Shown here piece after piece: positions 6,409 through 62,074 of a DNA stretch of 64,000 bases. The stretch's first letter is position 1. Each line of letters begins with the position of its first letter. A program made the position numbers and the translations under genes. Under the pieces are notes generated by a model. It was not told the DNA's origin, searched no databases, and was given only the letters and a program-made list of their open reading frames with translations. Source of the stretch: Candidatus Lustribacter sp. (GTDB lineage Bacteria > Vulcanimicrobiota > Vulcanimicrobiia > Vulcanimicrobiales > Vulcanimicrobiaceae); assembly GCA_965277805.1 (NCBI GenBank), contig OZ255842.1:3616001-3680000 (forward strand), read 5' to 3'.

Positions 6409-6416
6409 AAGAGCGG

Positions 6417-6425: not shown

Positions 6426-6448
6426 CACCGAGGGCGTACGGCGCGAAC

Positions 6449-35838: not shown

Positions 35839-35841
35839 GAG

Positions 35842-37529
<1,688 letters not shown>

Positions 37530-37567
37530 TATCTCATAGGTTTCCCGGCGGGCGAATAAGTTCCGGC

Positions 37568-39837: not shown

Positions 39838-39881
39838 CACGGCGGAGGTTCGCTCGAACGGCGAGGCCAACCCCCGGCGCA

Positions 39882-40406: not shown

Positions 40407-40409
40407 TCT

Positions 40410-40443
40410 TGTCATCCCGAGCTTGTCGAGGGACCGCCACCAG
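40410..40443 (+). repeat. REP-like repeat, copy 7
   Basis: TGTCATCCCGAGCTTGTCGAGGGACCGCCACCAG. Confidence 0.9.
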
Positions 40444-40445
40444 GC

Positions 40446-40471
40446 TGGAACTTTCGCGCGCGGGCTGCGTA
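40446..40471 (+). promoter_or_regulatory. ECF sigma autoregulatory promoter
   Basis: TGGAAC-N16-CGTA, close to the SigW consensus TGAAAC-N16-CGTA. Confidence 0.7.
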
Positions 40472-40504
40472 TCTAGGATGGTGCCCACTCTCGCAGAGGG
40501 ACGG

Positions 40505-45005: not shown

Positions 45006-45067
45006 GCGTCGGCTCGGGTTCGCCGAGGGGAGCGATAGCACCGTCCATGCGAACATAGGCCAACGCA

Positions 45068-48817: not shown

Positions 48818-51084
48818 GCAGAACTCGCGTCGGCCCCTACATTTGGAGCGCGCTCGTTGCGTTGATCGGCGCCGTCGTCGTCATGCACCTGTGGCACATG
48901 CGCGTCGGCATCCCGCTCTACTACAGCCGCGGCGGCGAAGAGCTGATGGTCCTTACGTGGACGAAGGCGATGCTCGACGGCGGATGGTACGGCACGATCG
49001 CGCACCTCGGCGCGCCGTTTGCGATGTCAACGGCCGACTATCCGCTCCCGGACCTGCTGCACACCCTGGTGCTGCGCGTCATCACCCTTGTGGTGCATCA
49101 CGCACCGGTTGCCGTGAACCTTTACTTCATCGCGGGCTTTCCGTTGATCGCACTGGCCGGCACCTACGCTCTGCGGCGTCTGGGCGTCTCGTCGGGCGCG
49201 GCCGTTGCGATGTCGGTCATCTACGCGCTGTTGCCGTTTCGCTTCATGCGCAACGAAGGGGCCCTGTTCGCCTCTCAGTACTACATCCTGCCGCTGCTGG
49301 TGCTCGCAGTTGTCTGGGTTCTGCGCGAACACGCGCTGTTCGATCCGGGCCGCCGCAGGCCGACGCGAGACGGCTACATCTTTCTCGTAAGCCTGCTCGC
49401 GCTCTCGTGGGATAACACCTACGATGCCGCCTTCGGCGTGATGCTTCTCGCCTTCGCGGCGGCGGCGTCGTATGCACGCACGCGCGCTTGGCGCGGCGCA
49501 GCGGCGGCGCTCGTGGGGATCATCGTGATCTTCGCCGGTGCCGAGATCGAACTTCTGCCGTCGACCATCTACCAGCTCCAGCACGGCAAGGATGCCGCCA
49601 TCGTCTCCCTAGCGCCGCAGACATCCGAGTATAACGCGTTGACGCTGGCGCAACTCGTCCTCCCGATCCAGAACCACCGCATCCCGAAACTGGCTCGCAT
49701 GCGGGCGAAGTTTGATTCGGGGCTTGTTGACTTTATCAACGAGAACTCCTCAGCCACGCTCGGAGTGGTGGGCGCGCTGGGCTTTCTCGGCACCTTGGCG
49801 GCGCTGCTGCTCGTGCGCACCGAGCGCGACGGCGATCTGTGGCCCGAGCTCTCGCGATTGAATCTAGCGATGTTTTTCATCGCGACCATCGGCGGGGTGG
49901 GGGCGCTGATCACGTACTATCTCGTTCCACAGCTGGATCTCTACAATCGCATCTCGCCGCTGATCGCCTTCGTTTCTCTGGCGGCGGTCGCGCTCGTTCT
50001 CGATACGATCCGGCGACGCCGGCTCGCGGAGTGGAACGGCGTGTGGGCGATGGGCCTCACGCTTTTGACGGCGGTTGCGATCTTCGATCAAACCTCAGCC
50101 ACCTACGTGCCGAACTATAACGCCGACATTCAAGCGTATAACGCTGATACCGGATTCGCGACAATGCTCGAAAGCCGCCTCGGGCCCAATGCGCAGGTGT
50201 ATCAGTTACCGCACGTCGCGTTCCCGAGCATCGCCCCAGTCGAGCGGCTCCAACCCTGGGACCAAACGGCGCTCTACCTGCAATCGCACACCCTGCACTA
50301 CAGCTTTGGGACGACCGTCGGGCGCAAAGACGACGATTGGCAACTCGCCACGAACGCGCTGCCCTTGCATGCATCGCTCATGGAACTCGTACTTGCCGGG
50401 TTCCAGGGCATCGTGGTCTACACAGCCGGCTACGCGGACAACGGGAACGCCGAGATCGGCGCGCTATCATCGCAGCTGGGAACCGACCCGGTCCTTCGCG
50501 ACGACCGCATGGCCGCGTTCTTCGACCTCAGCAAGCTGCACGCGCGCTACATCGCGGCCGTCGGAGCCGATAAGGCGGCCTCCGTACGCGCGACGATCAT
50601 TCACGCCGTACCCGGCGGCATCCAGCATCCGCCTGAGGACATTGCTATGGCAATGGGTACGGCCGGGCGATTACTCGACGCGGTGAGCACGCCGCCGGCG
50701 ACGGCAATCGACGTCACCTTCGCGGCGGGCTGCTACGCGCCGGAGCGAAACGCCACATCGGATTGGCATTGGTGCGGCAACTCAGCCCTCCTGACACTTC
50801 TGAACCATGGCCCGGCGCAACGCATCGTGCTGAAGTACACGTTGACAACCGGCGCGCCGGCGCAGGTGACGGCTGCCGCAAATGGGACGCGCGCAATACT
50901 CGAGGGTTCGCCGCAAGGAAGTTCCGTCAATGAAACACTCCTCGTTCCGCCCGGACGAACCGCCCTGCGGCTCACCACCAGCGCGCAGCCCATCGCGGCA
51001 CCCGCCGATCCGCGCCGTCTTACGATGCAAATTGCGAATTTACGGGTATTTCAAACACACGCAGGTAACGTAACACCGCCTTGA
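48814..51084 (+). CDS. Polytopic membrane protein, GT-C-like (paralog B, extra C-terminal beta domain)
   Basis: GGEE after TM1; shared blocks with paralog A (QLVLPIQ.HRIP, NENSSATLG). Confidence 0.6.
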   Translation: MSRTRVGPYIWSALVALIGAVVVMHLWHMRVGIPLYYSRGGEELMVLTWTKAMLDGGWYGTIAHLGAPFAMSTADYPLPDLLHTLVLRVITLVVHHAPVAVNLYFIAGFPLIALAGTYALRRLGVSSGAAVAMSVIYALLPFRFMRNEGALFASQYYILPLLVLAVVWVLREHALFDPGRRRPTRDGYIFLVSLLALSWDNTYDAAFGVMLLAFAAAASYARTRAWRGAAAALVGIIVIFAGAEIELLPSTIYQLQHGKDAAIVSLAPQTSEYNALTLAQLVLPIQNHRIPKLARMRAKFDSGLVDFINENSSATLGVVGALGFLGTLAALLLVRTERDGDLWPELSRLNLAMFFIATIGGVGALITYYLVPQLDLYNRISPLIAFVSLAAVALVLDTIRRRRLAEWNGVWAMGLTLLTAVAIFDQTSATYVPNYNADIQAYNADTGFATMLESRLGPNAQVYQLPHVAFPSIAPVERLQPWDQTALYLQSHTLHYSFGTTVGRKDDDWQLATNALPLHASLMELVLAGFQGIVVYTAGYADNGNAEIGALSSQLGTDPVLRDDRMAAFFDLSKLHARYIAAVGADKAASVRATIIHAVPGGIQHPPEDIAMAMGTAGRLLDAVSTPPATAIDVTFAAGCYAPERNATSDWHWCGNSALLTLLNHGPAQRIVLKYTLTTGAPAQVTAAANGTRAILEGSPQGSSVNETLLVPPGRTALRLTTSAQPIAAPADPRRLTMQIANLRVFQTHAGNVTPP

Positions 51085-51956
51085 AGATTTGCACCAATTG
51101 CAGCACTCGCTACGACGGGCCGAATTGGGACTGCCCGAATTGTTCGTTCAAACCCGATCGGTTGGCATCCCACATTCGCTTCGCACCGGAAGTCGCGACG
51201 GAGACGGCAGGCTTCGAGCCGGAATTCTTCGAGAACCTGTTCGCCCTCGAGGCAAGCAACTTTTGGTTTCGCGCCCGGAACGAACTCATTCTCTGGGCAA
51301 TGAAGGCCTACTTCAGCACGGCGCGATCGATGCTCGAAATCGGATGCGGAACGGGCTTCGTGCTCTCGGGAGTGGAGCGAGCGTTCCCGCAGCTGGTGCT
51401 TTCCGGAACCGAAGTGCTCGATCGCGGGCTGGAGCTGACCGCCAAACGCATCAAGTCCGCGACGCTCTATCAGATGGATGCGCGCTCCATACCCTTTGAG
51501 AATGAGTTCGACGTGATCGGCGCGTTCGACGTCATCGAGCACATCGTGGAAGATTCGCGCGTGCTGGCGGAGATGTACCGCGCCGTGAAACCCGGGGGCG
51601 GCATCCTCGTGACCGTACCGCAGCATCCCTGGCTCTGGAGCCAGGGCGACGTTCACGCTCACCACGAACGCCGGTATGTCGCCGCGGACTTCGCACGACA
51701 GGTGCGCACGGCCGGTTTCCGGATTTCGCGGATGACGTCGTTCGTGTCGCTCCTCTTGCCGCTCTTACTGATTTCACGGCGGCGAAACACGGGAGCGTCT
51801 TTCGATCCCCACGCCGAATTCAAAATCCCCGCCTATCAAAACGCGATCCTCGAATGGGCTCTGGGGATCGAACGCTCCCTGATCCAGGCAGGCGTCAATT
51901 TTCCCGCCGGCGGATCACTGCTCGTCATCGCTCACAAACCGGAGTCTGCCGGATGA
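51081..51956 (+). CDS. Class I SAM methyltransferase with N-terminal CxxC...CxxC
   Basis: CTNC..CPNC; LEIGCGTG, FDVIEH, VKPGG. Confidence 0.85.
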   Translation: MKICTNCSTRYDGPNWDCPNCSFKPDRLASHIRFAPEVATETAGFEPEFFENLFALEASNFWFRARNELILWAMKAYFSTARSMLEIGCGTGFVLSGVERAFPQLVLSGTEVLDRGLELTAKRIKSATLYQMDARSIPFENEFDVIGAFDVIEHIVEDSRVLAEMYRAVKPGGGILVTVPQHPWLWSQGDVHAHHERRYVAADFARQVRTAGFRISRMTSFVSLLLPLLLISRRRNTGASFDPHAEFKIPAYQNAILEWALGIERSLIQAGVNFPAGGSLLVIAHKPESAG

Positions 51957-52681
51957 TCTCCATCGAACCAAACGTCGTCGACGCCGAACTCGAGAAGCGC
52001 GGCTACCTCATTATCAAAGATGCAGCGCTGACCGAGTTGTGCAGCGCCGCTCACGACGAATACTACCGGTGCTTTGAGGCGTCGACGCTACACGCGCCAC
52101 GCGACCGGTTCCACTATACCGACCTGATCAAGAATCCGTGGCGCAAACTGACGATCGGCTCCGGCAACGGGCTCGGCGAAGCGTACGCCCAGAATCTGCA
52201 GACGACGTATTTTCATTTCGACGATCCGAACTACCCGAGGCTCGGCTCGTTGTTCAAGATGATGACCGTCATGCGCAACAAGCTCATGGGCGTTTCCGAG
52301 TCGTTCGGTTCGGATCCCGATCACGATCGCTTTTGGGACGCTTGCCGCGTGCATCACTATCCGCGCGGCGGCGGTTTTATGGCCGTCCACCGCGATACGT
52401 ACTTCCCCCAGATCATCGACGCGCAGATCGGCAAGCCGTACTATCAGATCTGCGTGCTGCTCAGTCGCAAAGGCACGGACTTCGGGACGGGCGGCGGAAT
52501 TATCATCGATAACGACGACGCCAAGGTCGACCTCGAAACGGCGGCCGGCTTCGGCTCGCTCATCCTATTCGATGGCCGCGCGCGCCACGCCGTCGAGGAC
52601 GTCGATCTCGATACCATCATCGACTTCAATCGGGCCGACGGGCGGTTAGCTGCCTTCGTGAACCTCTACGCGGTCCGATAG
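51953..52681 (+). CDS. 2OG-Fe(II) oxygenase-like protein
   Basis: YPRGGG..HRD, GG, LILFDGRARH, GR. Confidence 0.65.
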   Translation: MISIEPNVVDAELEKRGYLIIKDAALTELCSAAHDEYYRCFEASTLHAPRDRFHYTDLIKNPWRKLTIGSGNGLGEAYAQNLQTTYFHFDDPNYPRLGSLFKMMTVMRNKLMGVSESFGSDPDHDRFWDACRVHHYPRGGGFMAVHRDTYFPQIIDAQIGKPYYQICVLLSRKGTDFGTGGGIIIDNDDAKVDLETAAGFGSLILFDGRARHAVEDVDLDTIIDFNRADGRLAAFVNLYAVR

Positions 52682-53599
52682 CGGGCCGCCATAGACCTTG
52701 CGGACGACCGTGAGCGGACGCCGCTTCGTCTCCGAGAGAATGTTCGCGACATAGATGCCCTGAATGCCGAGAATGACCGTCGAGAGCGCGCCGAAAAACC
52801 AGATCGACACGATGATCGATGTGAAGCCGGTGACGGGAACACGTGCAAACGCGTAAAGCAGCACGAAGTACACGATCAGCGCCGCAGCAACGGCCGTCAG
52901 CGCGAGGCCGAGATAGAAGACCATGTAGAGCAGCTTGGTCGACGACGTCGTCAGGTGCTTGACGAAATACTGCACGCGCATGCGGAACGAGTAGGTCGAC
53001 GTCGAGCTCATATGCTTCGTCGCCGCGATGCCGACTTGCCGGAAGCCGGACGACGCCCACAGCTGCGAGATGAGGAACTCGCGATCGCGGTGCTCGAGCA
53101 GCGCGTCGACATAATCTCGCTTCATGAGCCTGGCCGTCATGATGTTGCGCGGAATCCGGTCGGTGCTGAGCTTATCGAGGAGCCAAAAGTAGACTTCGCC
53201 CGTGAACTGCGTCATGAAGCCGCCGCGCCGCTGGGGCTGAAACCCGTACACGACGTCGCAATCGCCTTCCATCAGACGAGCGTAAAAGATGCCGAGCAGT
53301 TCGGGATCTTCATCGAGATCGCTATCGAGCAGAAACACGAGGTCACCGCTCGCATGCGCGAGCCCCGTCATGAGCGCCTTATGGTGCCCGAAATTCCGCG
53401 AGAGGTCGACCACGACGACGCGGGGGTCCAGTTGCCGCAACGCGAGGGCGCGACCGAGACTGTCGTCGGGCGAGCCGTCGTTGACCATGATGAGCTCCAG
53501 CTCGTAGCCGAGGGGTTCGGCTGCCGCCACGGCGCGCAGGTAGAACTCATTGATCGTCCCGGCCGACCGGTACAGCGTCGTCACGATGGACAGCTTCAT
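52646..53599 (-). CDS. GT2 polyprenol-phosphate glycosyltransferase (GtrB/ArnC-like)
   Basis: NDGSPD, LSRNFGH, DSDLD; two C-terminal TMs. Confidence 0.9.
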   Translation of the reverse strand: MKLSIVTTLYRSAGTINEFYLRAVAAAEPLGYELELIMVNDGSPDDSLGRALALRQLDPRVVVVDLSRNFGHHKALMTGLAHASGDLVFLLDSDLDEDPELLGIFYARLMEGDCDVVYGFQPQRRGGFMTQFTGEVYFWLLDKLSTDRIPRNIMTARLMKRDYVDALLEHRDREFLISQLWASSGFRQVGIAATKHMSSTSTYSFRMRVQYFVKHLTTSSTKLLYMVFYLGLALTAVAAALIVYFVLLYAFARVPVTGFTSIIVSIWFFGALSTVILGIQGIYVANILSETKRRPLTVVRKVYGGPLSDRVEVHEGS

Positions 53600-54390
53600 G
53601 CGGCGTTGTTCCAGGGCGTCAGGCGAAGAAACTTCTCCAAGTTCGTTCGGCCGATTGCCTCCGTTTTCTTGTCATCGAGGCCGCCCGCGAGATCCTCAAA
53701 GCGCGCTCGCACGGCTGCGTGCCCGTAGTCGGGAAAATCCGCACCGATGCAGATCCGGCTCTCAAATGCCCGGAAGAGAAACTTCAAATCGAGATCGATC
53801 GAGCTTCCCTGGTATTTCATCATCGTGTGCGAGAGGTCGAGAAGCAGGTTCGGCGAGTGCCGAGCGAGCTGCGCATAGCGCATCAGTTCAACGTCGCCGC
53901 CGTGAACCAGCACCAGACGGCAATCGCCCGCGTCTTGCAGCGCCGCAACCAGATCGTAGAGGGGATCATGGCGCGGATACGCGTCGACCCCGGCGTGAAA
54001 GTACGTGCACAAGAAGACCACGAGATCACGCTCGGCTGCCGCGCGAAATGCGGGCGCCAGCGACGGATCGCGCAGATCAACTCCGGAGTTGCGCGGATGA
54101 ATCTTGATGCCGCGGAACCCGAGCGTGGCGATCGCGTCGAACTGCGCAGTCACGTCTGCAGCGCGCGGGTCGACGCCCGCGATCGGCACGAGTTCCGGAT
54201 ACGGGCGGCACATTGCCGCAAACTCGGCATGCGCGTAGCCCTCGATACCGGCCAGACCGACGGCACAAGCGCGTGCGAAACCATTGTCTCGCATCGACGC
54301 AACGAGCGTTTCGACCCTCGCATCGCGGTCACTGTTCGGCCAGCGGCCGGAGAGTGTCGGATGTGCCAGAGAGTCAAAGAGACCCGTCAT
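53596..54390 (-). CDS. Amidohydrolase_2 family protein
   Basis: GIKIHP, LVHGG, LDLS, GADFP. Confidence 0.75.
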   Translation of the reverse strand: MTGLFDSLAHPTLSGRWPNSDRDARVETLVASMRDNGFARACAVGLAGIEGYAHAEFAAMCRPYPELVPIAGVDPRAADVTAQFDAIATLGFRGIKIHPRNSGVDLRDPSLAPAFRAAAERDLVVFLCTYFHAGVDAYPRHDPLYDLVAALQDAGDCRLVLVHGGDVELMRYAQLARHSPNLLLDLSHTMMKYQGSSIDLDLKFLFRAFESRICIGADFPDYGHAAVRARFEDLAGGLDDKKTEAIGRTNLEKFLRLTPWNNAA

Positions 54391-55583
54391 CCGGGCAGAT
54401 CGGTTTTTCGCCGGACCCCGCTCGCGGCAAGGCTCTTGATCTTGCGCAAGGCTGCAATGAATCGATCCTCGGGTTCAAAGCCAAGCGAGGCGCGCACGAA
54501 CCGGTCCGTACTCGCGCCATACGCCGAGCCCGGAACAACAGAGATCTTATCGTTGATCAGGAGATCGATCGCAAAGTCGTCGGCACTGCCCGGGTAGTTC
54601 TCAATCGAGATGAAGTAGTAAAACGTTCCCGTACCGGCCATCTTGACGAGGCCGATCTCGTCCATGATGCCGGCGATCCGGAGACGCTGCTCGGCGAGAA
54701 GGCGCGCCTGCGGCAATGTCGCCGCCGTCAGCTCATCGAAATAGCGCGCGACATATTGCTGCAGAATCGTCGGCGCGCAGGTAATAATGTGCTGATTGAG
54801 CTTCAGGCATTGTTTGACGAAGGCCGAATCGGCAATGAGATAGCCGAGCCGCCAACCGGCGATGCCCATGCTCTTGGAGAGCGAGTTGACAACGATCGCG
54901 CCGTCTTTATCCGGGACGATGGACGCCAGCGACACGAACTCATCGGCGGAGAGAAAGTCGCTATACGCCTCATCCATCAGGAGATAAACACCGCGCTCGC
55001 GGCACTGCGCGAACACCGATGCAATTTCGCGAGCGCCGTAGACGCGGCCCGCCGGGTTGTTGGGATTGTTGAGGATGAGGAGTTTTGTCCGCGGCGTGAA
55101 CTGCTCGGCAATCCGTGCGATGTCGACGTCGTGCGGAATAAAGCGAGGCACGGCACCGACGATGCCGGCCTGCTCTTGATAGCTCACCCAGGCGGGCTCG
55201 GGGATCGCGACCTCATCGCCCGGCTCGAGAGCCGCGAGCATGACCATGAAGATCGCTACTTTTGATCCGGCGGTAACCAGGATCTCAGTCGCCGGATCGA
55301 CCTGCGCTCCGTAATGCGCGCGATAAAACTCCGCCAGTTTGGCGCGCAGTTCGGCGATACCACGGCTGTCCGAGTAGTTGCTGCCCTTGTCGAGGTCCAT
55401 GGCATCGAAGCTCGGCCAGTCCATCGAAAAGAACGTGTCGCCCAGCGAGAGGACCGTCAGGTCTTCTCCCCTCGCCTTCAAATCGGCCACGATTTGATTC
55501 ATGCGAATCGACGCGGACTCGGCGATGTTGCGGACGCGCCGGCTCAACTGCATCGGCGGGTGCGCCGCGGTCGTTTCGCTCAC
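54387..55583 (-). CDS. Class I/II PLP aminotransferase
   Basis: NNPNNPAG, DEAY, SLSKSMGIAGWRLG. Confidence 0.9.
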   Translation of the reverse strand: MSETTAAHPPMQLSRRVRNIAESASIRMNQIVADLKARGEDLTVLSLGDTFFSMDWPSFDAMDLDKGSNYSDSRGIAELRAKLAEFYRAHYGAQVDPATEILVTAGSKVAIFMVMLAALEPGDEVAIPEPAWVSYQEQAGIVGAVPRFIPHDVDIARIAEQFTPRTKLLILNNPNNPAGRVYGAREIASVFAQCRERGVYLLMDEAYSDFLSADEFVSLASIVPDKDGAIVVNSLSKSMGIAGWRLGYLIADSAFVKQCLKLNQHIITCAPTILQQYVARYFDELTAATLPQARLLAEQRLRIAGIMDEIGLVKMAGTGTFYYFISIENYPGSADDFAIDLLINDKISVVPGSAYGASTDRFVRASLGFEPEDRFIAALRKIKSLAASGVRRKTDLPG

Positions 55584-56590
55584 GCTTCGACGTGTTGAAC
55601 GAGGCCCGAAGCGACGCGCTCCATCGTCTCGACGCTCGGATCGAGCCGATCCACGTCGCCCAAGGCAATGATCAGGCGCTTCGGGTCGACCGGAATCCGC
55701 TGCACCACGCCTTGGAGACGCGAGAGGAAGCTCGAGTGGAATCCGCCGATGCCGATGGCGACATCGAGTGAGGTGGAGCCGCCGCCGTCCGCCATGAGGG
55801 GACGAACGAACTCTTCACCGGCAGCGAGCACGCCGTAAATGTCGATGCCGGTCGGGACATCGAGCTTGTTGCAGATCGCAACGAGCGCTTCGGTTTGCGC
55901 GTTGCCGCCGCCGCGCCCGATACCCTGAAGCGTACAATCAACGATCGCCGCACCCGCGCGGTAGGCAGCCAAGCTGTTTGCATTGGCCATCAAGAGATTG
56001 TTGTGCCCGTGGAAGCCGACCGGGATCGACACGGCTGCGCATGTTTCACGAACGTACGCCGACACTTCATCGGGCAGCATGCAGCCGGCCGAATCGACCA
56101 CCGCGACAACGTCGGCACCCCATTGCTCGACCACGCGGACCGTCTCGGCATATTCCTCGGGTGAGAGCAAATACGATTTCATCGCGTTGTACGAAACGTA
56201 CAAGCCGAGGCTCTTCGCGTACTCGATGAAGGGCCGCGCCTGAGCAACTTCGGTCACGTTCGTGCCGATGCGCAGGAAGCCGAGTCCATGCTCACGTGCG
56301 GCCTTGATGTCTTCTTCACGGCCGATGCCGGGAATGATGAATGCACCGAACCGGGCCGTCGTGAGAACGCTGGTCGCCGCATCGCAGTATTCGATATCCG
56401 TCGCCGCCGCAACGCCGCGTTGCGGGTGCGATCCATTGAGGCCGACACCATGGCCGATCTCGATGAATTGAACGCCGGCATTTTCCAACGCCGAGCAGAT
56501 GGCGCGCGTATGCTGCGTCGTCCATTGGTAGTCGATCGCGTAGCTACCGTCGCGGATCGTGCAATCGAGTAAGGTGAGTGGCTTATTCAT
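55580..56590 (-). CDS. DmpG/MhpE-like class II pyruvate aldolase (DRE-TIM)
   Basis: TIRDG, EIGHGVGL, DSAG, GFHGHNN, GIGRGGGN, C-terminal communication-like domain. Confidence 0.85.
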   Translation of the reverse strand: MNKPLTLLDCTIRDGSYAIDYQWTTQHTRAICSALENAGVQFIEIGHGVGLNGSHPQRGVAAATDIEYCDAATSVLTTARFGAFIIPGIGREEDIKAAREHGLGFLRIGTNVTEVAQARPFIEYAKSLGLYVSYNAMKSYLLSPEEYAETVRVVEQWGADVVAVVDSAGCMLPDEVSAYVRETCAAVSIPVGFHGHNNLLMANANSLAAYRAGAAIVDCTLQGIGRGGGNAQTEALVAICNKLDVPTGIDIYGVLAAGEEFVRPLMADGGGSTSLDVAIGIGGFHSSFLSRLQGVVQRIPVDPKRLIIALGDVDRLDPSVETMERVASGLVQHVEA

Positions 56591-56594
56591 ATAC

Positions 56595-57365
56595 CTATCG
56601 CGCTACTGCGAGATCGACGGCCTCGGCGACCCGAGTGTTGGTGGCAAGCTTATTGACCGCAAAGATGGCCATCCATCGGCCTTCGAATGAGAGCCAATCG
56701 GCGTCTTTCTTCGTATCGATGTTTGCGACGCCGTGCGCCAGCTTCGGGCTGAAGAGGACGACGTCGCCCGGGCTCGTGTGCTTCTCGATCATCTCGATCT
56801 CGCCGTCGGCGCCCCGGACGAAGATGCCGCCTTCGTCGAAATCGCGGCCCAGCTCCGACATCATCAACAACGGCACGACGGCCTGGTGCGGACCGACCGG
56901 ATCGATGTGTTCGTTCATCCCGCCGATGCCCTTCGGATAAAACTGGAACGACAAGCGCGCGATGCAGTCGTCATAGGCCTCATAGCCGAGATAGGCACCG
57001 GGTTCGGCACAGGAGAGCAGATTGCGCAACTCAAAGATGAGCCGCAGCCGGCTGAACAGGCCAAAGACGTCGTCGTTCCACGGGAAGAACGAAAATTGAT
57101 GGAAGCACGCTTTTACATACGAGCGCTCGTCCCAGTGGCTGATGCGATGAAAATTTGAACAGTTCGGGAGGATCGCTTGCCAGCCGGGAAGCGAGCCCCG
57201 GCCGACCTGGCTCAGGTATGCGATCCACGCGGCAATTTCTTTGCGCGAAACGACGTTCCGGATGATGCATATGCGCTCGTCATCGAGCTGCTTCAAGAGC
57301 TCCTGACGGCACGCAGAATCTCGGACCAGATCATTCAACGGAGCTGTTTCGAAAATCTGGGTCAT
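56595..57365 (-). CDS. 2OG-Fe(II) oxygenase-like protein
   Basis: YPKGIG..HID, DFDEGG, PGDVVLF..LAHGV, GRW. Confidence 0.65.
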   Translation of the reverse strand: MTQIFETAPLNDLVRDSACRQELLKQLDDERICIIRNVVSRKEIAAWIAYLSQVGRGSLPGWQAILPNCSNFHRISHWDERSYVKACFHQFSFFPWNDDVFGLFSRLRLIFELRNLLSCAEPGAYLGYEAYDDCIARLSFQFYPKGIGGMNEHIDPVGPHQAVVPLLMMSELGRDFDEGGIFVRGADGEIEMIEKHTSPGDVVLFSPKLAHGVANIDTKKDADWLSFEGRWMAIFAVNKLATNTRVAEAVDLAVAR

Positions 57366-58039
57366 TCGGAGTCGACCTCGCCGGTAGGGATGAACCCAAG
57401 GTATTCGGGGAAAATTGTGTATTTCTTGTCGAAATCGTCCTGCAAGTCGACAAAGATCGTGAACTCGAACGGCATATAGTCCTGCCTGAGCACCACACGC
57501 TTGGAGTAGCTGTACGCCAGGTCCAAGACGGCGCAGGGGTCGGCGTTGTACAAGGACTCGTCCCGGAAGTCCACGCGATCGGTGATGAAGTTGGCGGCGA
57601 AGCCCCGCCGTGCCTTAGCGCGGAAGAGGTCGAAGGTTTCGCGGATAAAGCCCCAGTTGTCGGCCATGCGGAAGTTATAGAGGCCCGACGCCACGATGAC
57701 GTCGTAGCCTTGCGGCAATCCATCCGTCGAAATATCGAGCGCGCGCAGGTCGGCCTCGGGATAGCGCTCGCGGCCGGCTTCGATCAGGCGCGGGTTGAGA
57801 TCGATCCCGTGATAGCGCACATCCGCGCGACCGCTCTGCCGGCAGTAGTCGTACATGTCGCCGAAGCCGCAGCCGAAATCGAGCAAGTCGGCGTTCGCAA
57901 GATTCCAATACGACAGTAATATATCATAGCGGAGGATATGCTGACGCTTCGTCCAGCCGAGCGTGCGCGCGTCATGGCCGTACTGCTTGAGCCGCGCGTT
58001 GTAGCGTTCGAGCGTGGAGCGTTTCTCGTCGTCGTTCAC
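57362..58039 (-). CDS. Class I SAM methyltransferase
   Basis: LLDFGCGFG, YHGIDL, ASG. Confidence 0.85.
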   Translation of the reverse strand: MNDDEKRSTLERYNARLKQYGHDARTLGWTKRQHILRYDILLSYWNLANADLLDFGCGFGDMYDYCRQSGRADVRYHGIDLNPRLIEAGRERYPEADLRALDISTDGLPQGYDVIVASGLYNFRMADNWGFIRETFDLFRAKARRGFAANFITDRVDFRDESLYNADPCAVLDLAYSYSKRVVLRQDYMPFEFTIFVDLQDDFDKKYTIFPEYLGFIPTGEVDSE

Positions 58040-58983
58040 TCCGCAGGTTGTCCGTCGACGCGTTCGGCATACCCGATCCCGGCGCGGCCGTATCCGTTAC
58101 CGGCGTACAGGAGATAGGTCGCGTGCGGGAGCCGCATCAGGCGCGGGTAACATTGCATTTCGCTGTCGAAGTCGCTGCGGGCGAGTTCGAACGGGGCGGG
58201 CAAGCGGGTCCACGTATTCGGCGGTCCCTCGATCGAAGCGAACAGGCGATAACGATGTCCGCGCGCGGTGAAATACATGTAGCGCGTGCCGTCGACGGTA
58301 TCGATGTCGGGCGCGCCGAGCGCGTACTCATCGGGCGGGATAAGATCGACGATCACCGTGCCCGGTCGCTCCCAATGAATGCCGTCCCGCGAGTGCGCTT
58401 CACGAATATGATAGTAGTGGCGCGGCCCATCGGGACGGCGTTCCCAGCGCAAAAAGTTCGTATAGAACATGCGCCAGCCATCAGGCACCCGCTCCACGCA
58501 AATGGATCCGTTGCCCAGCGGTTCTTCATCGGTCATCGGCAACAGCGGCGCGCGCGTGGCGCGCCGGAACGTCTTGCCGCCGTCCGAGCTGATTGCTAAG
58601 CCGATCTGATTGCGAAACGGGATATCGCCGCCGAGCCGATTCCAGCCGACATAGTACATCCAAAGCTCGCCGTCGCGTTCGACGATCCAGGGATAGCTCA
58701 CGCCGTCCATGTCGAAGCATCCCGGCTCGCCTAAATCAAAGACCGGCTCTCGCGTGATTCCCGTCAGTTGCGGCGTGTCGCCCCACTTGAAGGTTGCGAT
58801 GCCGATTCTGCTCCGCACCGACTCATCTCGGCCCGTGAGAAAAAGCCGAACCGTTCCGTCGTCGGAAACGAGCGGGAAGAATGCCCCGAGGCCGCCGCCC
58901 ATCCAGCCGATCGAAAAGTCAGGCCGGAACACGACCCCGCGCGTTGCCCACGCAATCATGGTTTGCCGGTCATGCAGTGGCAA
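58036..58983 (-). CDS. Five-bladed beta-propeller glycosidase-like protein (GH32/GH130-like)
   Basis: FDMDGVSYP, LAISSDGGKTF, SRDGIHW, YAGNGYG. Confidence 0.65.
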   Translation of the reverse strand: MPLHDRQTMIAWATRGVVFRPDFSIGWMGGGLGAFFPLVSDDGTVRLFLTGRDESVRSRIGIATFKWGDTPQLTGITREPVFDLGEPGCFDMDGVSYPWIVERDGELWMYYVGWNRLGGDIPFRNQIGLAISSDGGKTFRRATRAPLLPMTDEEPLGNGSICVERVPDGWRMFYTNFLRWERRPDGPRHYYHIREAHSRDGIHWERPGTVIVDLIPPDEYALGAPDIDTVDGTRYMYFTARGHRYRLFASIEGPPNTWTRLPAPFELARSDFDSEMQCYPRLMRLPHATYLLYAGNGYGRAGIGYAERVDGQPAE

Positions 58984-60202
58984 GGAACGTCAGGGGTTGG
59001 CAAAAGGCTCCATCGGTCGTTTCGAGTCGGATCTGCGAGGCAATGTTCTGTGCGCGCGCAAGCGCCGCCGGCCCATCTTCCGCGACCACGCCGACGTAAC
59101 CGCTGCGTTGCGACGTCCACCTGATCGGCTCGATGATGCCGTCGGACGGTAGCCAGTAGTCGAAGTCGATCACGCCGTCGCTTTCGGGCAGGCCTTCGGG
59201 TACATGCATCGTGCGCGCCGTGCAGGGGGGGAAAGCGAGAAACATGAGCACGGCACCTCGGTGTGCCGGCGAGATGTCAGCGTTGTCGGAGACGTTGCAC
59301 GCGAGACGAGCGGCTTCAACCATCGGATGATAACCACCGGTGTGCGCCGCAAGATCTGGCGTGATGCTGCCGCCGCAACGGGCGGCTAGTTCGATCGGCT
59401 TCGGCCCCTCGCTCGTCAGGGTGAATTCGATGTGCCCCGGACCCTTCGAAATACCGAGCAGCGCGGTGGCTTTATTGCACATCCGCTCGATGGCAGCGAC
59501 CGTTTTGGGATCTGTCTCGCCCGGATAGCCGATCGCCAAGTCGACACGATAGGGCGGTTCCGACTTTATCTTCCGTCCGAGGGCGAGAACGTGCGTCTTT
59601 CCATCCCTCACGAGCAGTTCGGCACTGAATTGCGGACCCGAAAGTGCCTGCTCGACGAGAATGTCGGAGCCTGGCAATGCATGCTCCTGCGCGAATGCGA
59701 AGGCGCCCGCGATATCGGCCTTATCGGAAACGAGGCTCACGCCGCGGGAACCACCGTGACTCATATCCGGCTTGATGATGACGGGCAAGCCGCCCACGGA
59801 GTCGACAGCCCGCATCGCCTCGTCTGCGGATGCAACGGTTTCGTACGGCACCAAGAGTTCGGAATCATCTGCCCAGTGGCGGCGCTGTGCGAGCTTGCTA
59901 ATCGTGCGATCGATAATCGCGCGTGGCAGACCGGGAAGCTTAAAGCGCGGCTGCAGATCGGCGGCACTGAGCATCGCGACTTCATTGATACCGATGATGC
60001 CGTCGACGCCGCCCATGTCGCGAATGGCCGCGTCGAGCGCGTCGACGTCGGCAGGCGCGATTTCGAGTCCGATGTTCGCCTCGGCTAGCGCATACTGCCG
60101 CGGCAGCTTATCTGCGACGGCTACCTCAAAACCGGCAGCACGCAACGCCTTGATCGACCCGATCGTGGAGCGATTGCCCCCGATCATCAATACGCGCGGC
60201 AC
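58970..60202 (-). CDS. ATP-grasp amide ligase
   Basis: PVIIKPD..GGSRGV, LVEQALSGPQFSAE, HIEF, IELAARCGG. Confidence 0.85.
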   Translation of the reverse strand: MPRVLMIGGNRSTIGSIKALRAAGFEVAVADKLPRQYALAEANIGLEIAPADVDALDAAIRDMGGVDGIIGINEVAMLSAADLQPRFKLPGLPRAIIDRTISKLAQRRHWADDSELLVPYETVASADEAMRAVDSVGGLPVIIKPDMSHGGSRGVSLVSDKADIAGAFAFAQEHALPGSDILVEQALSGPQFSAELLVRDGKTHVLALGRKIKSEPPYRVDLAIGYPGETDPKTVAAIERMCNKATALLGISKGPGHIEFTLTSEGPKPIELAARCGGSITPDLAAHTGGYHPMVEAARLACNVSDNADISPAHRGAVLMFLAFPPCTARTMHVPEGLPESDGVIDFDYWLPSDGIIEPIRWTSQRSGYVGVVAEDGPAALARAQNIASQIRLETTDGAFCQPLTFLATA

Positions 60203-60210
60203 GTTTGTGC

Positions 60211-61368
60211 CTACGCTCTAATCGCCGGCGAACCGGCCGAAAACGCGGTAACCGCTTGGATAACGCGCTCCTGCTCTTCGGCAGTCATCGTATTGTACAG
60301 CGGCAGCCGGATCAGACGATCGCTGCTCGATTCGGTTATGGGAAATTGTCCGTTGTGATAGCCGAGCTTCGCGCCATATTCCGACAGATGGAGGGGGACG
60401 TAGTGAAACACCGCGCCGATGTTCAAGCGCGCGAGATAGGCGATCAGCGCATCGCGGTCCTCAGTGGTCGGCAGCAACATGTAATAGAGGTGGTACGGCT
60501 GCGTGCAGTACTCGGGAACGGTCGGCTGTTGCACGCCGGAGCGCGAGCACCATTCGGCGAGTTCGCGCTGGTAGCGATCCCAGATCACTCCCCGGCGGGC
60601 TTGTATCTCGTCGGCCTTCTCTAGTTGCCCAAACAGAAATGCCGCCAGCAAATCGCTTCCAAGATATGAGGAACCGGGCTCGACCCAGCTATACTTGTCG
60701 ACGAGGCCTCTAAAGAAACGGCTCCGGTTCGTGCCCTTTTCGCGCACGATCTCCGCCCGCTCCACAAAGTTCGGATCGTTGACGATGAGCGCCCCGCCCT
60801 CACCGCAGACGATATTTTTGGTCTCGTGAAAGCTTTGGGTCGCGAAGGTCCCGAATGAGCCCAGCGGCCGGCCACGATACGCCCCAAAAAGTCCGTGGGC
60901 GTTATCCTCGACGATGTGCAATCCGTGCCGCGCCGCGATTTCGCTGATCTGATCCATCTCGCAGCTGACGCCGGCGTAGTGCACGATAGCGATCGCGCGC
61001 GTTCGCGGCGTTATCGCCGCCTCGATTAGGCGTTCGTCGATGTTCAGGGTGTCCGGACGAACGTCCACAAAAATCGGGCGGGCTCCCCGCAGGACGAACG
61101 CGTTCGCGGTCGACACGAACGTGAAGGACGGCATGATCACTTCGTCGCCTGGCTCCAAATCCAGCAGAAGCGCGCTCATATCGAGGGCGTGCGTACAGGA
61201 CGTGGTGAAGAGCGCCTTGAGCCCGCCGGTGGCACGTTCGAGCAGTTCGCTTGCCCGCTTCGTATAATGGCCGTCACCCGACAGGTGAGCGCGAGCGATG
61301 GCGTCGGTCATATAACCGACCTCGTCGCCCATGAGCACAGGGCGGTTGAAGGGGACTCGGTCGCTCAC
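60211..61368 (-). CDS. rffA: dTDP-4-amino-4,6-dideoxygalactose transaminase
   Basis: TTSCTHAL, VHYAGV, SFHETKN, EKGTNR, FHYVPLH. Confidence 0.9.
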   Translation of the reverse strand: MSDRVPFNRPVLMGDEVGYMTDAIARAHLSGDGHYTKRASELLERATGGLKALFTTSCTHALDMSALLLDLEPGDEVIMPSFTFVSTANAFVLRGARPIFVDVRPDTLNIDERLIEAAITPRTRAIAIVHYAGVSCEMDQISEIAARHGLHIVEDNAHGLFGAYRGRPLGSFGTFATQSFHETKNIVCGEGGALIVNDPNFVERAEIVREKGTNRSRFFRGLVDKYSWVEPGSSYLGSDLLAAFLFGQLEKADEIQARRGVIWDRYQRELAEWCSRSGVQQPTVPEYCTQPYHLYYMLLPTTEDRDALIAYLARLNIGAVFHYVPLHLSEYGAKLGYHNGQFPITESSSDRLIRLPLYNTMTAEEQERVIQAVTAFSAGSPAIRA

Positions 61369-61457
61369 GCCTGTAGCTTTGCCTCCAGGATACGGGCAAA
61401 CCCTCCCTCGCCGTGGTCTAGGTTCGCATAACCGCTAGCTCGAAACGCGGCACGTAT

Positions 61458-62057
61458 ATGCACATCCGTGACATTCTTAATTATGCGGCGGTCTACCGAG
61501 CGTTTACGGCTGTTGTCGGCGGGACTCGCGGCCGTACGCATTTTTCAGAATTCATTCGCGCGAAGGACGGGGACCGGATTCTGGATCTGGGTTGCGGACC
61601 CGCCGATATTGTTGAGTACCTGCCCAACGTGGAGTATATCGGGCTAGATTCAAATCCCGCATACATCGAAAATGCGCAGCAGCGCTGGGGAGTGAGAGGA
61701 ACGTTCATTTGCGCACCTGTCGCTGAAGCAACCGCTCAGCATGCCGGCACCTTCGACATCGTGCTTGCCATCGGCGTCCTTCATCACCTCACCGATAGCG
61801 AGGTTACCGAACTCTTCAAGGATGCGTTCCTCGCGCTGCGGCCCGGTGGAAGACTCGTCACCCTCGACGGCGTTTACACCAAGCGCCAAAACCCGCTGGC
61901 CCGGTTCTTGCTCTCGCAAGACCGCGGCAGATTCGTTCGCACGCAGACCGAGTACGAACGCCTCGCGCATACATCGTTTGCAAACATCGCATGCCACGTG
62001 GATAATCTCGCTGCACCCGTGCCATACACGCACTTGATCATGGAGTGCGCCAAATAA
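61458..62057 (+). CDS. Class I SAM methyltransferase
   Basis: LDLGCG, GVLHHL, LRPGG. Confidence 0.85.
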   Translation: MHIRDILNYAAVYRAFTAVVGGTRGRTHFSEFIRAKDGDRILDLGCGPADIVEYLPNVEYIGLDSNPAYIENAQQRWGVRGTFICAPVAEATAQHAGTFDIVLAIGVLHHLTDSEVTELFKDAFLALRPGGRLVTLDGVYTKRQNPLARFLLSQDRGRFVRTQTEYERLAHTSFANIACHVDNLAAPVPYTHLIMECAK

Positions 62058-62074
62058 GACGTCCCGGCAGCTCA

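Follow-up and report, generated by a model that had tools for sequence, protein, structure and literature searches.

The window, a 64,000-nucleotide stretch of DNA from Candidatus Lustribacter sp., contains nine minus-strand open reading frames at 52646-61368 that are all present and, from their coordinates in the window, translationally coupled: neighbours overlap by 4 nt in six cases and by 14 nt in one, and are otherwise 4 or 8 nt apart. This agrees with the tightly coupled nine-gene operon described in an earlier sequence-only reading. The operon is flanked by an oxygenase-like gene paralogous to one inside it, by two methyltransferases and by three polytopic membrane proteins, with RmlA and RmlB encoded upstream; a second 2OG oxygenase (ox1) and two more methyltransferases (MT1 and MT3) had been rightly named as flanks. 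In order of position, the features are:

44280..45068, minus strand: RmlA, glucose-1-phosphate thymidylyltransferase (PF00483, E 4e-59; TIGR01207 at 256.8 bits, under its 360.65 cut-off)
45068..45838, plus strand: TauE/SafE-family membrane protein between rmlA and rmlB (PF01925, E 3e-42; six hydrophobic segments)
45847..46857, minus strand: RmlB, dTDP-glucose 4,6-dehydratase (TIGR01181 at 436.9 bits, cut-off 365.1)
46961..48817, plus strand: mem1, polytopic membrane protein with a large C-terminal domain, candidate GT-C (nine hydrophobic segments)
48814..51084, plus strand: mem2, candidate GT-C transferase, YfhO/DUF6311-like (YfhO E 0.002, under cut-off)
51081..51956, plus strand: MT1, class-I SAM methyltransferase with an N-terminal CxxC...CxxC motif (Methyltransf_11, E 3e-14)
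51953..52681, plus strand: ox1, 2OG/Fe(II)-oxygenase-like, paralog of the in-operon "cupin" (weak PhyH and 2OG-FeII_Oxy_3 matches)
52646..53599, minus strand: GT2, GtrB/ArnC/PgfS-type polyprenyl-phosphate glycosyltransferase (GtrB 5EKP, E 6e-38; ArnC, E ~1e-27; both full length)
53596..54390, minus strand: Amidohydro_2 TIM-barrel protein (PF04909, E 3e-15)
54387..55583, minus strand: class-I (AspAT Ib-like) aminotransferase, translationally coupled to the aldolase (PF00155, E 5e-55)
55580..56590, minus strand: HMGL-family class II pyruvate aldolase of a distinct clade (HMGL-like; NF006049 at 300.6 bits against 229; TIGR03217 at 270.7, under 286)
56595..57365, minus strand: "cupin", 2OG/Fe(II)-oxygenase-like (in Pfam, sub-threshold Cupin_2 only; Atlas neighbours in Fe2OG/Oxygenase-NA families)
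57362..58039, minus strand: MT2, class-I methyltransferase of the conserved core (Methyltransf_12 and _25)
58036..58983, minus strand: cytoplasmic five-bladed beta-propeller, GH130/GH137/GH43-like (AlphaFold2 model and Foldseek)
58970..60202, minus strand: LAL-type ATP-grasp ligase (ATP-grasp_4; LAL_C2 at 29.2 bits, cut-off 29.4)
60211..61368, minus strand: RffA/WecE-type dTDP-4-amino-4,6-dideoxyhexose aminotransferase, DegT family (NF008687 at 558 bits, cut-off 375; TIGR02379 at 516.9, cut-off 434.85)
61458..62057, plus strand: MT3, class-I methyltransferase, divergent from rffA (Methyltransf_25, E 9e-16)
62045..63763, plus strand: mem3, polytopic membrane protein (ten hydrophobic segments)

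Co-occurrence was assessed over 56 loci with a relative of the ATP-grasp gene and 7 loci with only a distant ATP-grasp. Partners among the 56 were the aldolase (46), a DegT aminotransferase (47), MT2 (35), an RmlB-like protein (35) and a GT2 (28); none of these occurs in the other 7. The aldolase lies on the ATP-grasp strand in 45 of its 46 loci, mostly directly upstream, and the two genes co-travel over many phyla. They can also be fused: P0289 joins an ATP-grasp to an aldolase 39% identical to the window's, with the same Tyr/His hallmarks (see below), and P0268 and P0066 join an ATP-grasp to an MT2-like domain. Co-occurrence had been set beforehand as a test of the sequence-only reading, and the aldolase count, these fusions and the gene order of locus L002 all speak for it; in L002 a single strand carries rmlB-rmlA-rffA-aldolase-ATP-grasp-propeller-MTase-cupin-amidohydrolase-ox1, the three sugar genes standing immediately before aldolase-ATP-grasp. 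Because locus L001 shows full synteny of operon and flanks (76-100% protein identity, with 96% for MT3 and 76% for mem3) and the core is found again in other phyla, the arrangement is not due to chance. Only in a few loci does the DegT partner resemble WecE (46-58% identity); elsewhere it belongs to other subfamilies, for example alongside WbpB/WbpD-like genes in L004; since its subfamily varies between loci, the amine acceptor is not constant.

All relatives inspected lie in envelope or flagellar glycan loci: the closest have the cassette in flagellar islands, acidobacterial loci combine it with GT2, LPG_synthase_TM and GT87, and in L035 it accompanies a GT2-GtrA fusion. The label "secondary-metabolite-like" was therefore misleading. 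We consider it very unlikely that the pathway ends in a diffusible small molecule, in the form of a glycoside like nikkomycin or the aminoglycosides, instead of a surface glycan; the aldolase, transaminase, ATP-grasp, oxygenases and methyltransferases do recall peptidyl-nucleoside pathways as outlined in the available part of PMC11641026, but the GT2 is a lipid-phosphate transferase, the relatives sit in flagellar islands or O-antigen- or Arn-like loci, and no gene for an exporter, resistance or a regulator was seen in 42996-63763.

The supply of a dTDP-sugar precursor, as earlier proposed, is matched by RmlA (whose true start, taken from the translation, is probably the ATG at 45005) and RmlB in the window. 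By family assignment these would yield dTDP-4-keto-6-deoxyglucose, which RffA, with an SFHETKN motif in its translation, would convert to dTDP-4-amino-4,6-dideoxyhexose. Since RmlC and RmlD are encoded in the window as well, rhamnose synthesis may be the main task of RmlA and RmlB. The TauE/SafE gene has a counterpart in 0 of the 63 loci compared. RmlA, RmlB and a WecE-equivalog aminotransferase are shared with the ECA and O-antigen pathways to dTDP-Fuc4NAc and dTDP-Qui4N(acyl), but the window has an ATP-grasp and an acid-building module in place of a WecD- or VioB-type acetyltransferase. A Pfam scan of the ORFs in 42996-63763 found no acetyl- or formyltransferase, as had been noted for the surroundings of rffA, and the ATP-grasp is thus the sole candidate acylating enzyme in this interval; the GNAT nearest to the operon lies at 7618-8118 in the window.

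The GT2 is, judging from its full-length matches, a genuine GtrB/ArnC-type polyprenyl-phosphate transferase, which bears out the lipid-carrier role first ascribed to it, and would load the nucleotide-activated sugar onto polyprenyl phosphate. Its best NCBIfam match is PgfS (132 bits), with ArnC at 99.7 bits, both far under equivalog cut-offs, and its C-terminus has two hydrophobic segments. Of the membrane proteins, mem1 and mem2 are paralogous (50% identity over 590 aa); mem1 has no Pfam match, mem2 gave zero matches in a PDB sequence search, and mem3 has neither a Pfam or NCBIfam match nor similarity to the other two. YfhO is matched by only 3 of 32 mem2-family sequences, 30 of which carry D or E at first-loop position 42; among the 36 mem2 relatives (35 without the window's own), some have PF19830 and some the JGI name "phosphoglycerol transferase". 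Three GT-C-like flanking genes had been claimed: as polytopic membrane proteins they stand, but a GT-C identity is only weakly suggested by sequence, with mem2 below threshold and mem3 in no family. The window contains no flippase gene; LPG_synthase_TM genes in L001, past the point matching the window's end, are flippase candidates. The setting recalls the GtrA/GtrB/GT-C systems (CsbB-GtcA-YfhO; Pgf of S. mutans), where, in the available parts of PMC8035078 and PMC5836110, a GtrB-type GT2 adjoins large polytopic membrane proteins, and the PgfS match and the weak YfhO likeness of mem2 fit this. Those systems move plain Glc, GlcNAc or Gal, whereas the window adds a nine-gene tailoring operon, lacks GtrA and has YfhO similarity only below threshold.

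In the PDB the ATP-grasp comes closest to the L-amino-acid ligase 3vot (E 4e-14), at low similarity, and its relatives form 61 representative clusters at E<=1e-30. Characterized LALs couple one amino acid to another, not an acid to a sugar amine, and this, with the low resemblance, weakens the proposed sugar-acylating role. An ordinary amino-acid ligase, making a dipeptide or peptidyl side chain from an aldolase-derived amino acid while another enzyme makes the sugar link, or while no link is made and the sugar amine is methylated, seems unlikely to us but deserves consideration: the LAL_C2 domain, the L-amino-acid ligases among the best PDB matches and the three methyltransferases at hand are all consistent with it, and Qui4N with a peptidyl N-acyl group, hydroxybutyryl-alanyl for instance, has precedent (PMC10609480, in the part available). 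Against it, 42996-63763 encodes no second acylating enzyme, whether GNAT, hexapeptide or formyltransferase, adenylating enzyme or NRPS; the DegT co-occurrence (47/56 loci) would be left without a linking enzyme.

The aldolase aligns with DmpG 1nvm (E 4e-53), keeping R, D, H and H, with His21 replaced by Tyr17 and Tyr291 by His285; the positional swap of Tyr and His recurs in 43/44 and 44/44 cassette aldolases, in which metal and enolate residues are preserved. It thus shares with the DmpG/BphI 4-hydroxy-2-oxovalerate aldolases the HMGL TIM barrel, the metal ligands and the enolate-stabilising Arg, but differs in this swap, in its frequent fusion to a Rossmann-like or ATP-grasp domain and in its anabolic context. 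Counting against the scheme favoured below are the loss of the DmpG catalytic His21 and Tyr291 from their usual positions, a score under the equivalog cut-off and the lack of a DmpF dehydrogenase partner. The class-I aminotransferase, with AspAT 1o4s as best PDB match (E 3e-45) and an SLSKS PLP-lysine motif in its translation, occurs in only 7 of the 56 loci, and the nearest relatives outside Eremiobacterota (L002 and L003, and L011 and L012 from Roseomonas) lack it, which also tells against the scheme and against an amino acid as the acyl group; in about 30 loci the aldolase is instead fused to a Rossmann-like domain.

Among the tailoring genes, MT1 has a homolog in L003 (41% identical) placed after the amidohydrolase. 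The real ATG of ox1 is at 51953, not 51854, and overlaps the MT1 stop codon; its homologs in L002 and L003 are 53-63% identical. A PDB sequence search with the "cupin" gave zero matches, and HxD...H plus an Arg is present in 11/11 aligned cupin and ox1 sequences. The Amidohydro_2 protein, found in 15 of the 56 loci, has only weak PDB matches, to the decarboxylases IDCase and LigW, and characterized members of its family are decarboxylases, lactonases and hydratases and are not known to include amidases. This bears on a strict analogy with Arn, in which a transient acyl group would drive transamination and satisfy the GT2, after which the Amidohydro_2 protein would strip the lipid-linked sugar as ArnD does, so that a free cationic 4-amino sugar is displayed. 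The series DegT, acylase, ArnC-like GT2 and hydrolase does parallel arnB, arnA, arnC and arnD, the Amidohydro_2 gene is translationally coupled to the GT2, and the latter is ArnC-like over its full length; we nonetheless regard this reading as quite unlikely, given the decarboxylase matches, the lack of known amidases in the family, the presence of Amidohydro_2 in flagellar-island cassettes without a GtrB-type GT2 (L002, L011, L012) and the extravagance of a leaving group decorated by so many enzymes.

No Pfam family reached its cut-off for the propeller. Its AlphaFold2 model is all-beta (pLDDT 94.8), and the top Foldseek matches are five-bladed GH137, GH130, GH32 and GH43 enzymes (TM ~0.7, identity 15-18%), including BT_0996 and 1,2-beta-oligomannan phosphorylase at TM ~0.7; nearly all of its 110 relatives are unnamed or labelled hypothetical. 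A glycosidase- or phosphorylase-like propeller would find a role if it cleaved the nucleotide off the amino sugar, to whose aldehyde the aldolase then added pyruvate, giving a higher 3-deoxy-2-ulosonic acid, a nonulosonic-acid-like product that the ATP-grasp amidates, and pyruvate-dependent aldolases can indeed produce ulosonic acids. We give this possibility the least credence: the propeller is in 6/56 loci against 46/56 for the aldolase, the scanned ORFs yielded neither a CMP-sugar synthetase nor another activating enzyme, and a GtrB-type GT2 requires a nucleotide sugar donor. Propeller and cupin are conserved together in the window's clade, and the propeller falls outside the scheme proposed below, which counts against it.

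On balance we favour, with modest confidence, reading the operon as a cassette that tailors a sugar for envelope glycosylation by an Arn-like route dependent on a lipid carrier. In this route the ATP-grasp would acylate the amino group of dTDP-4-amino-4,6-dideoxyhexose with an (amino) acid that derives from a pyruvate aldol and is methylated or hydroxylated. Family assignment supports the RmlA/RmlB, RffA and GT2 steps, and we infer all others. The aldolase would join pyruvate to a carbonyl compound, forming a 4-hydroxy-2-oxo acid, which the aminotransferase would here convert to an amino acid, its position being taken in some 30 other loci, we suggest, by the fused Rossmann-like domain. MT2, possibly MT1 and MT3, and the two oxygenase-like proteins may methylate or hydroxylate the acid or its conjugate, and the Amidohydro_2 protein may act as a lactonase or cyclase on the 4-hydroxy acid in its lactone or lactam form. 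The ATP-grasp would activate the acid as an acyl phosphate and pass it to the 4-amino group, in place of the Arn formyltransferase or the ECA acetyltransferase; after flipping, polytopic membrane proteins would move the sugar to an envelope acceptor.

The Arn system (PmrHFIJKLM, L-Ara4N on lipid A) likewise has a DegT-made 4-amino sugar nucleotide that is N-acylated before an ArnC-type GT2 loads it on undecaprenyl phosphate, followed by flipping and transfer by a polytopic membrane transferase, for which the window offers only candidates. It differs in using UDP-Ara4N and not a dTDP-6-deoxyhexose, in a formyl-THF transferase where the window has an ATP-grasp with a purpose-built acid, and in its deformylase, the window having no ArnD-family member. 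The sequence-only reading had not made this close comparison with Arn. The acid of nikkomycin is built by an aldolase and a transaminase. In nikkomycin and polyoxin assembly, ATP-grasp enzymes (NikS, PolG) join a non-proteinogenic acid to an amino-sugar nucleoside amine, and BlsL too links an acid to an aminonucleoside (PMC11641026, in the part available); the likeness is one of enzyme types, and the window differs in its glycan context and in its acceptor, which would be a nucleotide sugar on its way to a lipid carrier or flagellin. A literature search found no paper tying aminoacyl or oxoprolyl amino-sugar structures to such genes, and the cassette may be the missing biosynthetic route of these known sugars. 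The sequence-only interpretation as a whole is thus partly supported, by co-occurrence, fusions, GT2 type and precursor supply, and loses, besides its label, the novelty of the product class: to call it an "undescribed aminoacyl-sugar" was an overstatement, as 3- and 4-amino-6-deoxyhexoses bearing amide-linked amino acids or oxoprolyl groups are already well documented in the available parts of PMC7685785 and PMC10609480. The latter excerpt lists viosamine carrying 2,4-dihydroxy-3,3,4-trimethylpyroglutamoyl, along with amino-6-deoxyhexoses that bear other methylated hydroxy-oxoprolyl groups.

From its sequence, the best-supported reading of the nine genes at 52646-61368 is an acylated amino-sugar scheme resembling the Arn pathway, in which a DegT aminotransferase, an N-acylation step, the GT2 ArnC, a flippase and a GT-C enzyme bring L-Ara4N to lipid A. 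The coupled minus-strand operon claimed by the sequence-only reading is borne out by the ORF listing, Pfam and NCBIfam, with six 4-nt overlaps, one 14-nt overlap and gaps of 4 and 8 nt at its junctions. A promoter and terminator scan of 51000-62200 gave counts at the level of shuffled sequence (4 versus 3.2 and 10 versus 9.4) and is therefore uninformative.

Genes of the operon, in order of transcription, and of its flanks (window positions)
60211-61368, minus strand, RffA/WecE aminotransferase (rffA), first
58970-60202, minus strand, LAL-type ATP-grasp ligase, second
58036-58983, minus strand, propeller protein of 315 aa with no Pfam family, third
57362-58039, minus strand, class-I methyltransferase (MT2), fourth
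56595-57365, minus strand, "cupin" protein of 256 aa, fifth
55580-56590, minus strand, HMGL-type aldolase, sixth
54387-55583, minus strand, class-I aminotransferase, seventh
53596-54390, minus strand, Amidohydro_2 protein, eighth
52646-53599, minus strand, GT2 glycosyltransferase, ninth
44280-45068, RmlA, just upstream
45847-46857, RmlB, just upstream
ATG at 46961, plus strand, polytopic membrane protein (mem1)
48814-51084, plus strand, polytopic membrane protein (mem2)
51081-51956, plus strand, methyltransferase (MT1)
ATG at 51953, overlapping the MT1 stop, plus strand, paralog of the cupin protein (ox1)
61458-62057, methyltransferase (MT3), other side of the operon
62045-63763, polytopic membrane protein (mem3), other side of the operon

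The RffA/WecE assignment lies above curated cut-offs (NF008687, 558 bits against 375; TIGR02379, 516.9 against 434.85; PF01041, E 3e-92), and the two curated descriptions name different C4 epimers (galacto or gluco) of the RffA product. Likewise, genes for the supply of dTDP-4-keto-6-deoxyglucose are present: RmlB scores 436.9 against a TIGR01181 cut-off of 365.1, and RmlA is recognized by PF00483 (E 4e-59) and falls under the cut-off of TIGR01207. By family assignment, RmlA, RmlB and RffA would make a dTDP-4-amino-4,6-dideoxyhexose. Counting against an Arn-like reading, RmlC and RmlD are also encoded in the window, so supplying rhamnose may be the main task of RmlA and RmlB. A second deoxysugar block (34918-40406) carries a GDP-mannose 4,6-dehydratase with an epimerase/reductase, a PilZ protein, a D-Ala-D-Ala carboxypeptidase, RmlD and RmlC, and is followed by an ECF-type sigma factor (40316-41137). 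Between rmlA and rmlB lies a TauE/SafE-family permease (45068-45838, plus strand) with a counterpart in no related locus.

At the other end of the operon, the GT2 (PF00535, E 2e-22) aligns over residues 2-304 with Synechocystis GtrB (5EKP, E 6e-38) and over its full length with the ArnC structures 9HWJ, 9BHC and 8VXH (E ~1e-27). Because these GtrB/ArnC matches are full-length and two hydrophobic segments (at 221 and 245) lie at its C-terminus, it is classed as a polyprenyl-phosphate glycosyltransferase, and by family assignment it would place the sugar on polyprenyl phosphate. It scores well under the equivalog cut-offs for PgfS (132 versus 500 bits) and ArnC (99.7 versus 529 bits), and is thus a GtrB/ArnC family member that is an ortholog of neither. 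Systems that pair GtrB with a GT-C enzyme are established (PMC8035078 and PMC5836110).

The three flanking membrane proteins had been called GT-C-like. All are polytopic, with 8-9 hydrophobic segments in mem1 and mem2 (50% identical to one another) and 10 in mem3, and an acidic residue of the first extracytoplasmic loop (D or E, position 42) is kept in 30 of 32 aligned members of the mem1/mem2 family; however, the match to YfhO is sub-threshold (E 0.002, with 3 of all 32 members matching YfhO in Pfam), and mem3 matches nothing in Pfam or NCBIfam, nor mem1 or mem2. A search with mem2 found 36 relatives, including the window's own protein, some named "phosphoglycerol transferase" by JGI and some carrying DUF6311, and the mem1/mem2 profile gave chance-level matches only against PDB sequences. 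GT-C candidate is a reasonable label for the three, and delivery of the lipid-linked sugar by them is conceivable. A fourth GT-C candidate within the window, encoded ~22 kb away from the operon (28228-30018, minus strand), is a polytopic membrane protein of 596 aa that matches PMT_2 weakly (E 0.0017).

When compared with the Arn pathway, the operon shares the aminotransferase and an ArnC-type GT2, its acylating enzyme is a matter of prediction, and an ArnD-family protein and any flippase gene are absent from the window. The DNA past the window's end can be viewed in a close Eremiobacterota relative, a metagenome-assembled genome whose locus L001 matches the operon and flanks in full synteny at 76-100% identity. 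Downstream of mem3, L001:1-6444 encodes two further polytopic proteins, of 624 and 579 aa, along with a pair of LPG_synthase_TM paralogs that are flippase candidates and a PMT_2-like fragment; the run of envelope membrane proteins there is unusually long.

The acylation step is assigned to the ATP-grasp protein (ATP-grasp_4, 54 bits against a cut-off of 27), which lies just under the LAL_C2 cut-off (29.2 against 29.4) that its relatives clearly exceed. Three observations point to it as the N-acylating enzyme: other acyltransferases are absent, a DegT aminotransferase co-occurs with it, and NikS, PolG and BlsL, which couple acids to aminonucleosides according to passages of PMC11641026, provide a precedent. 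As the sequence-only reading had noted, no acetyl- or formyltransferase lies next to rffA; none is encoded within 42996-63763, and the nearest GNAT gene is at 7618-8118. Genomic context argues for the sugar amine as the likely nucleophile, and the ATP-grasp would join an acid to the 4-amino group. Against this, characterised LALs ligate two amino acids.

The acid itself would begin with the aldolase, which is predicted to convert pyruvate to a 4-hydroxy-2-oxo acid. It matches the DmpG structure 1nvm (E 4e-53) and retains R13, D14, H194 and H196 in the places of DmpG Arg17, Asp18, His200 and His202; H194 and H196 are conserved in all 44 cassette aldolases, R13 and D14 in 43. We take Asp18, His200 and His202 of DmpG to be metal ligands, and Arg17, His21 and Tyr291 to have catalytic roles. 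At the last two of these positions the residues are exchanged: Tyr17 aligns with DmpG His21 and His285 with DmpG Tyr291, and this swap is family-wide (Tyr17 in 43 of 44, His285 in 44 of 44). Because the swap is held across the family, and because the window's enzyme passes the subfamily model NF006049 and fails the equivalog TIGR03217 (270.7 against 286), these aldolases form, by sequence, a distinct and uncharacterised HMGL clade. Among the scanned ORFs there is no DmpF-type acylating aldehyde dehydrogenase. A reading of the operon in terms of an ulosonic acid has a low probability.

The class-I aminotransferase coupled to the aldolase, whose nearest kin are aspartate aminotransferases of class Ib (1o4s, E 3e-45), would aminate the aldol acid. 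In 30 of the 44 called aldolase genes, the aldolase is instead fused to a C-terminal domain of ~370 aa (for example L004:8807-9925, from an acidobacterial locus), and in the window and the Bacteroidota loci a separate class-I aminotransferase stands where this domain would be. The domain has no Pfam match, and its profile gave chance-level matches only against PDB sequences. A model built from 23 of the 30 sequences (pLDDT 90.2) only loosely resembles generic two-lobed Rossmann-like proteins in Foldseek (DpaA, FolD, ATCase and D-2-hydroxyacid dehydrogenases), with TM values of 0.27-0.44; with similarity of this generic kind, a dehydrogenase acting on the 2-oxo group stays a lead drawn from the model. 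The Amidohydro_2 protein has weak PDB matches, to decarboxylases. It may act on the 4-hydroxy acid in a lactone or lactam form. An ArnD-like role is disfavoured because the gene also occurs in flagellar-island cassettes with no evident lipid-linked step.

Further decoration of the acid would fall to the methyltransferases and to a pair of oxygenase-like proteins. These two, cupin and ox1, are paralogs (27-30% identity) that had been called 2OG oxygenases. This is upheld by their residues, since the facial triad (HxD and a distal H) and the GR motif expected to bind the 2OG C5 carboxylate are retained in 11 of 11 aligned sequences, but every match to a curated family is sub-threshold (PhyH and 2OG-FeII_Oxy_3, E ~2e-3; Cupin_2, E 7e-3). 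Atlas neighbours that include Fe2OG families serve as leads, and a search of PDB sequences with the cupin protein returned no match.

The label of beta-propeller for the third gene proved right. An AlphaFold2 model from 56 sequences (the window's and 55 of 110 relatives; pLDDT 94.8) matches five-bladed GH137, GH130, GH32 and GH43 enzymes in the PDB by Foldseek (E ~1e-12, TM ~0.7, identity 15-18%), a fold that by itself gives no function. Sequence matches to GH43 (E 0.011) and GH130 (E 0.047) lie under their cut-offs, and R52, D53, D91, D200 and E219 are conserved in the alignment. A glutaminyl-cyclase-like propeller that makes oxoprolyl groups is unsupported, as all the listed Foldseek matches are glycosidase or phosphorylase propellers. 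A metagenomic protein labelled WbqC-like (P0219) shares 57% identity with the propeller over one third of its length, and may be a fragment or chimera; WbqC-family genes are found in O-antigen loci. The propeller has no place in the Arn-like scheme, which counts against it.

It is informative to examine these genes in light of their company in other genomes. A profile from 33 ATP-grasps (the window's and 32 of 120 listed matches) retrieved 63 loci from species-representative genomes that carry two peptide patterns, a scope in which relatives lacking the patterns, including any in Vibrio or Plesiomonas, are missed. Neighbours were counted by tblastn with the window's 18 proteins at >=50% coverage, and the counts are lower bounds because several loci run into contig ends.

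Partner genes at 56 loci with relatives of the ATP-grasp
DegT aminotransferase, at least 47
Aldolase, at least 46 (45 on the same strand, mostly directly upstream)
MT2, at least 35
RmlB-like dehydratase/epimerase, at least 35
GtrB-like GT2, at least 28
Amidohydro_2, at least 15
Class-I aminotransferase, at least 7
Propeller, cupin and ox1, at least 6 each

Conserved co-occurrence had been proposed as a check, and these counts bear it out; the remaining seven loci (L056-L062), with distant ATP-grasps only, have none of the counted partners. Fusions tell the same story of association. Pfam scans of 17 longer ATP-grasp matches revealed an HMGL aldolase fused to a cassette-type ATP-grasp (P0289), this aldolase being 39% identical to the window's and bearing the same RDGxY and HSS hallmarks, and two proteins in which the ATP-grasp is fused to a methyltransferase (P0268 and P0066), the domain in P0268 aligning with MT2 over 209 residues (31% identity, E 6e-30). 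More distant ATP-grasp members are fused to TauD or GNAT domains. Neighbourhood counts and fusions together tie aldolase, ligase and MT2 into one pathway. With respect to the Arn-like scheme, few relatives have the class-I aminotransferase, and the DegT subtype differs between loci, so that the amine acceptor would differ too; both points weigh against it.

The cassette ranges across Eremiobacterota, Acidobacteriota, Bacteroidota, Gemmatimonadota, Actinomycetota, Alphaproteobacteria and one haloarchaeon, and 61 ATP-grasp clusters at E<=1e-30 came to light when 1.84 billion representatives were searched exhaustively. In a member of the Dongiaceae (L002), rmlB-rmlA-rffA-aldolase-ATP-grasp-propeller-MT2-cupin-amidohydrolase-ox1 lie on a single strand amid the flagellar genes FlgE, FlgH and FlgA; in Roseomonas (L011) the cassette adjoins a flagellin gene; and in Acidimicrobiales (L035) there is an additional GT2-GtrA fusion. 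Where the core occurs in acidobacterial loci, of which L004 is an example, it is accompanied by WbpB/D/E-like genes, a GtrB-like GT2, LPG_synthase_TM, a dehydratase, another DegT and a protein of family GT87. In a quick, midpoint-rooted tree of 51 ATP-grasps, the propeller/cupin-associated sequences (the window, L001, L002, L003, L011, L012 and L035) form one clade (SH-aLRT 100), and the nesting of the Eremiobacterota pair among Alphaproteobacteria suggests transfer between phyla in one direction or the other. The operon is also mosaic in its affinities. The nearest versions of its ATP-grasp, propeller, MT2 and cupin are alphaproteobacterial (61-70% identity); its aldolase is nearer the acidobacterial fused type (46-49%) than that of L002 and L003 (37%), and beside this aldolase the segment 54387-56590 has a class-I aminotransferase that is missing from L002 and L003.

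Neither the PDB matches nor the NCBIfam equivalogs nor the searchable literature include a characterised member of the conserved core. With regard to the sequence-only reading, what it observed in the operon is confirmed, and its interpretation as a displayed aminoacyl-sugar is partly supported. We know of no demonstration that an ATP-grasp acylates a nucleotide-sugar amine for surface glycans.

It is also worth considering which acyl groups such a core might make. Amide-linked glycine, alanine, serine and threonine occur on E. coli O-antigen sugars (passages of PMC7685785), and sections of PMC10609480 describe 2,4-dihydroxy-3,3,4-trimethylpyroglutamoyl on viosamine in V. anguillarum V-123, 3-hydroxy-2,3-dimethyl-5-oxoprolyl on Qui3N in P. 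shigelloides O74 and 3-hydroxy-3-methyl-5-oxoprolyl on Fuc3N in V. cholerae O5. The V-123 skeleton could be read as a pyruvate-pyruvate aldol with C-methylations, which makes the cassette a candidate for such chemistry. We therefore put forward, as a speculation that is probably wrong, that the aldolase-ATP-grasp-methyltransferase core is the missing route to branched, methylated, hydroxylated N-acyl groups of glutamate/5-oxoproline type on bacterial amino sugars. The His/Tyr-swapped HMGL aldolase would join two units of pyruvate type; the product would next be C-methylated, hydroxylated and aminated; and the ATP-grasp would then acylate the nucleotide-sugar amine. Delivery in Eremiobacterota would use an Arn-like lipid carrier, possibly with a new GT-C family, and flagellin would be what the cassette modifies in Alphaproteobacteria. 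A literature search, in which subscription journals were mostly uncovered, found no paper on an aldolase/ATP-grasp cassette for sugar N-acylation, none on ATP-grasp and viosamine, none joining ATP-grasp, flagellin glycosylation and aldolase, and no biosynthetic genes for most unusual N-acyl groups, amino-acyl and oxoprolyl included.

Unusual N-acyl groups on amino sugars shape the antigenicity of O-antigens, capsules and flagellins. The finding offers a cassette that crosses phyla, fusions that tie aldolase, ligase and methyltransferase together, and cultured carriers such as Roseomonas, and it would give a first handle on the envelope glycan chemistry of Eremiobacterota, a soil phylum that is for the most part uncultured. 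Should the idea be confirmed, N-acylation by ATP-grasp enzymes would join the nucleotide-sugar tailoring repertoire.

Elsewhere in the window, 22584-25196 (minus strand) encodes an 870-aa secreted protein with a single SLH-like match at its N-terminus (20.2 bits; cut-off 20.8). It may be a wall-anchored outer-layer protein and could conceivably act together with a modified wall polymer. Finally, at 2550-6952 (minus strand), a protein of 943 aa, which ends in a class-III aminotransferase domain and whose N-terminal 550 aa are unassigned, adjoins polyketide-cyclase-like and shikimate-DH-like proteins, and this region may be an unrelated small biosynthetic cluster.
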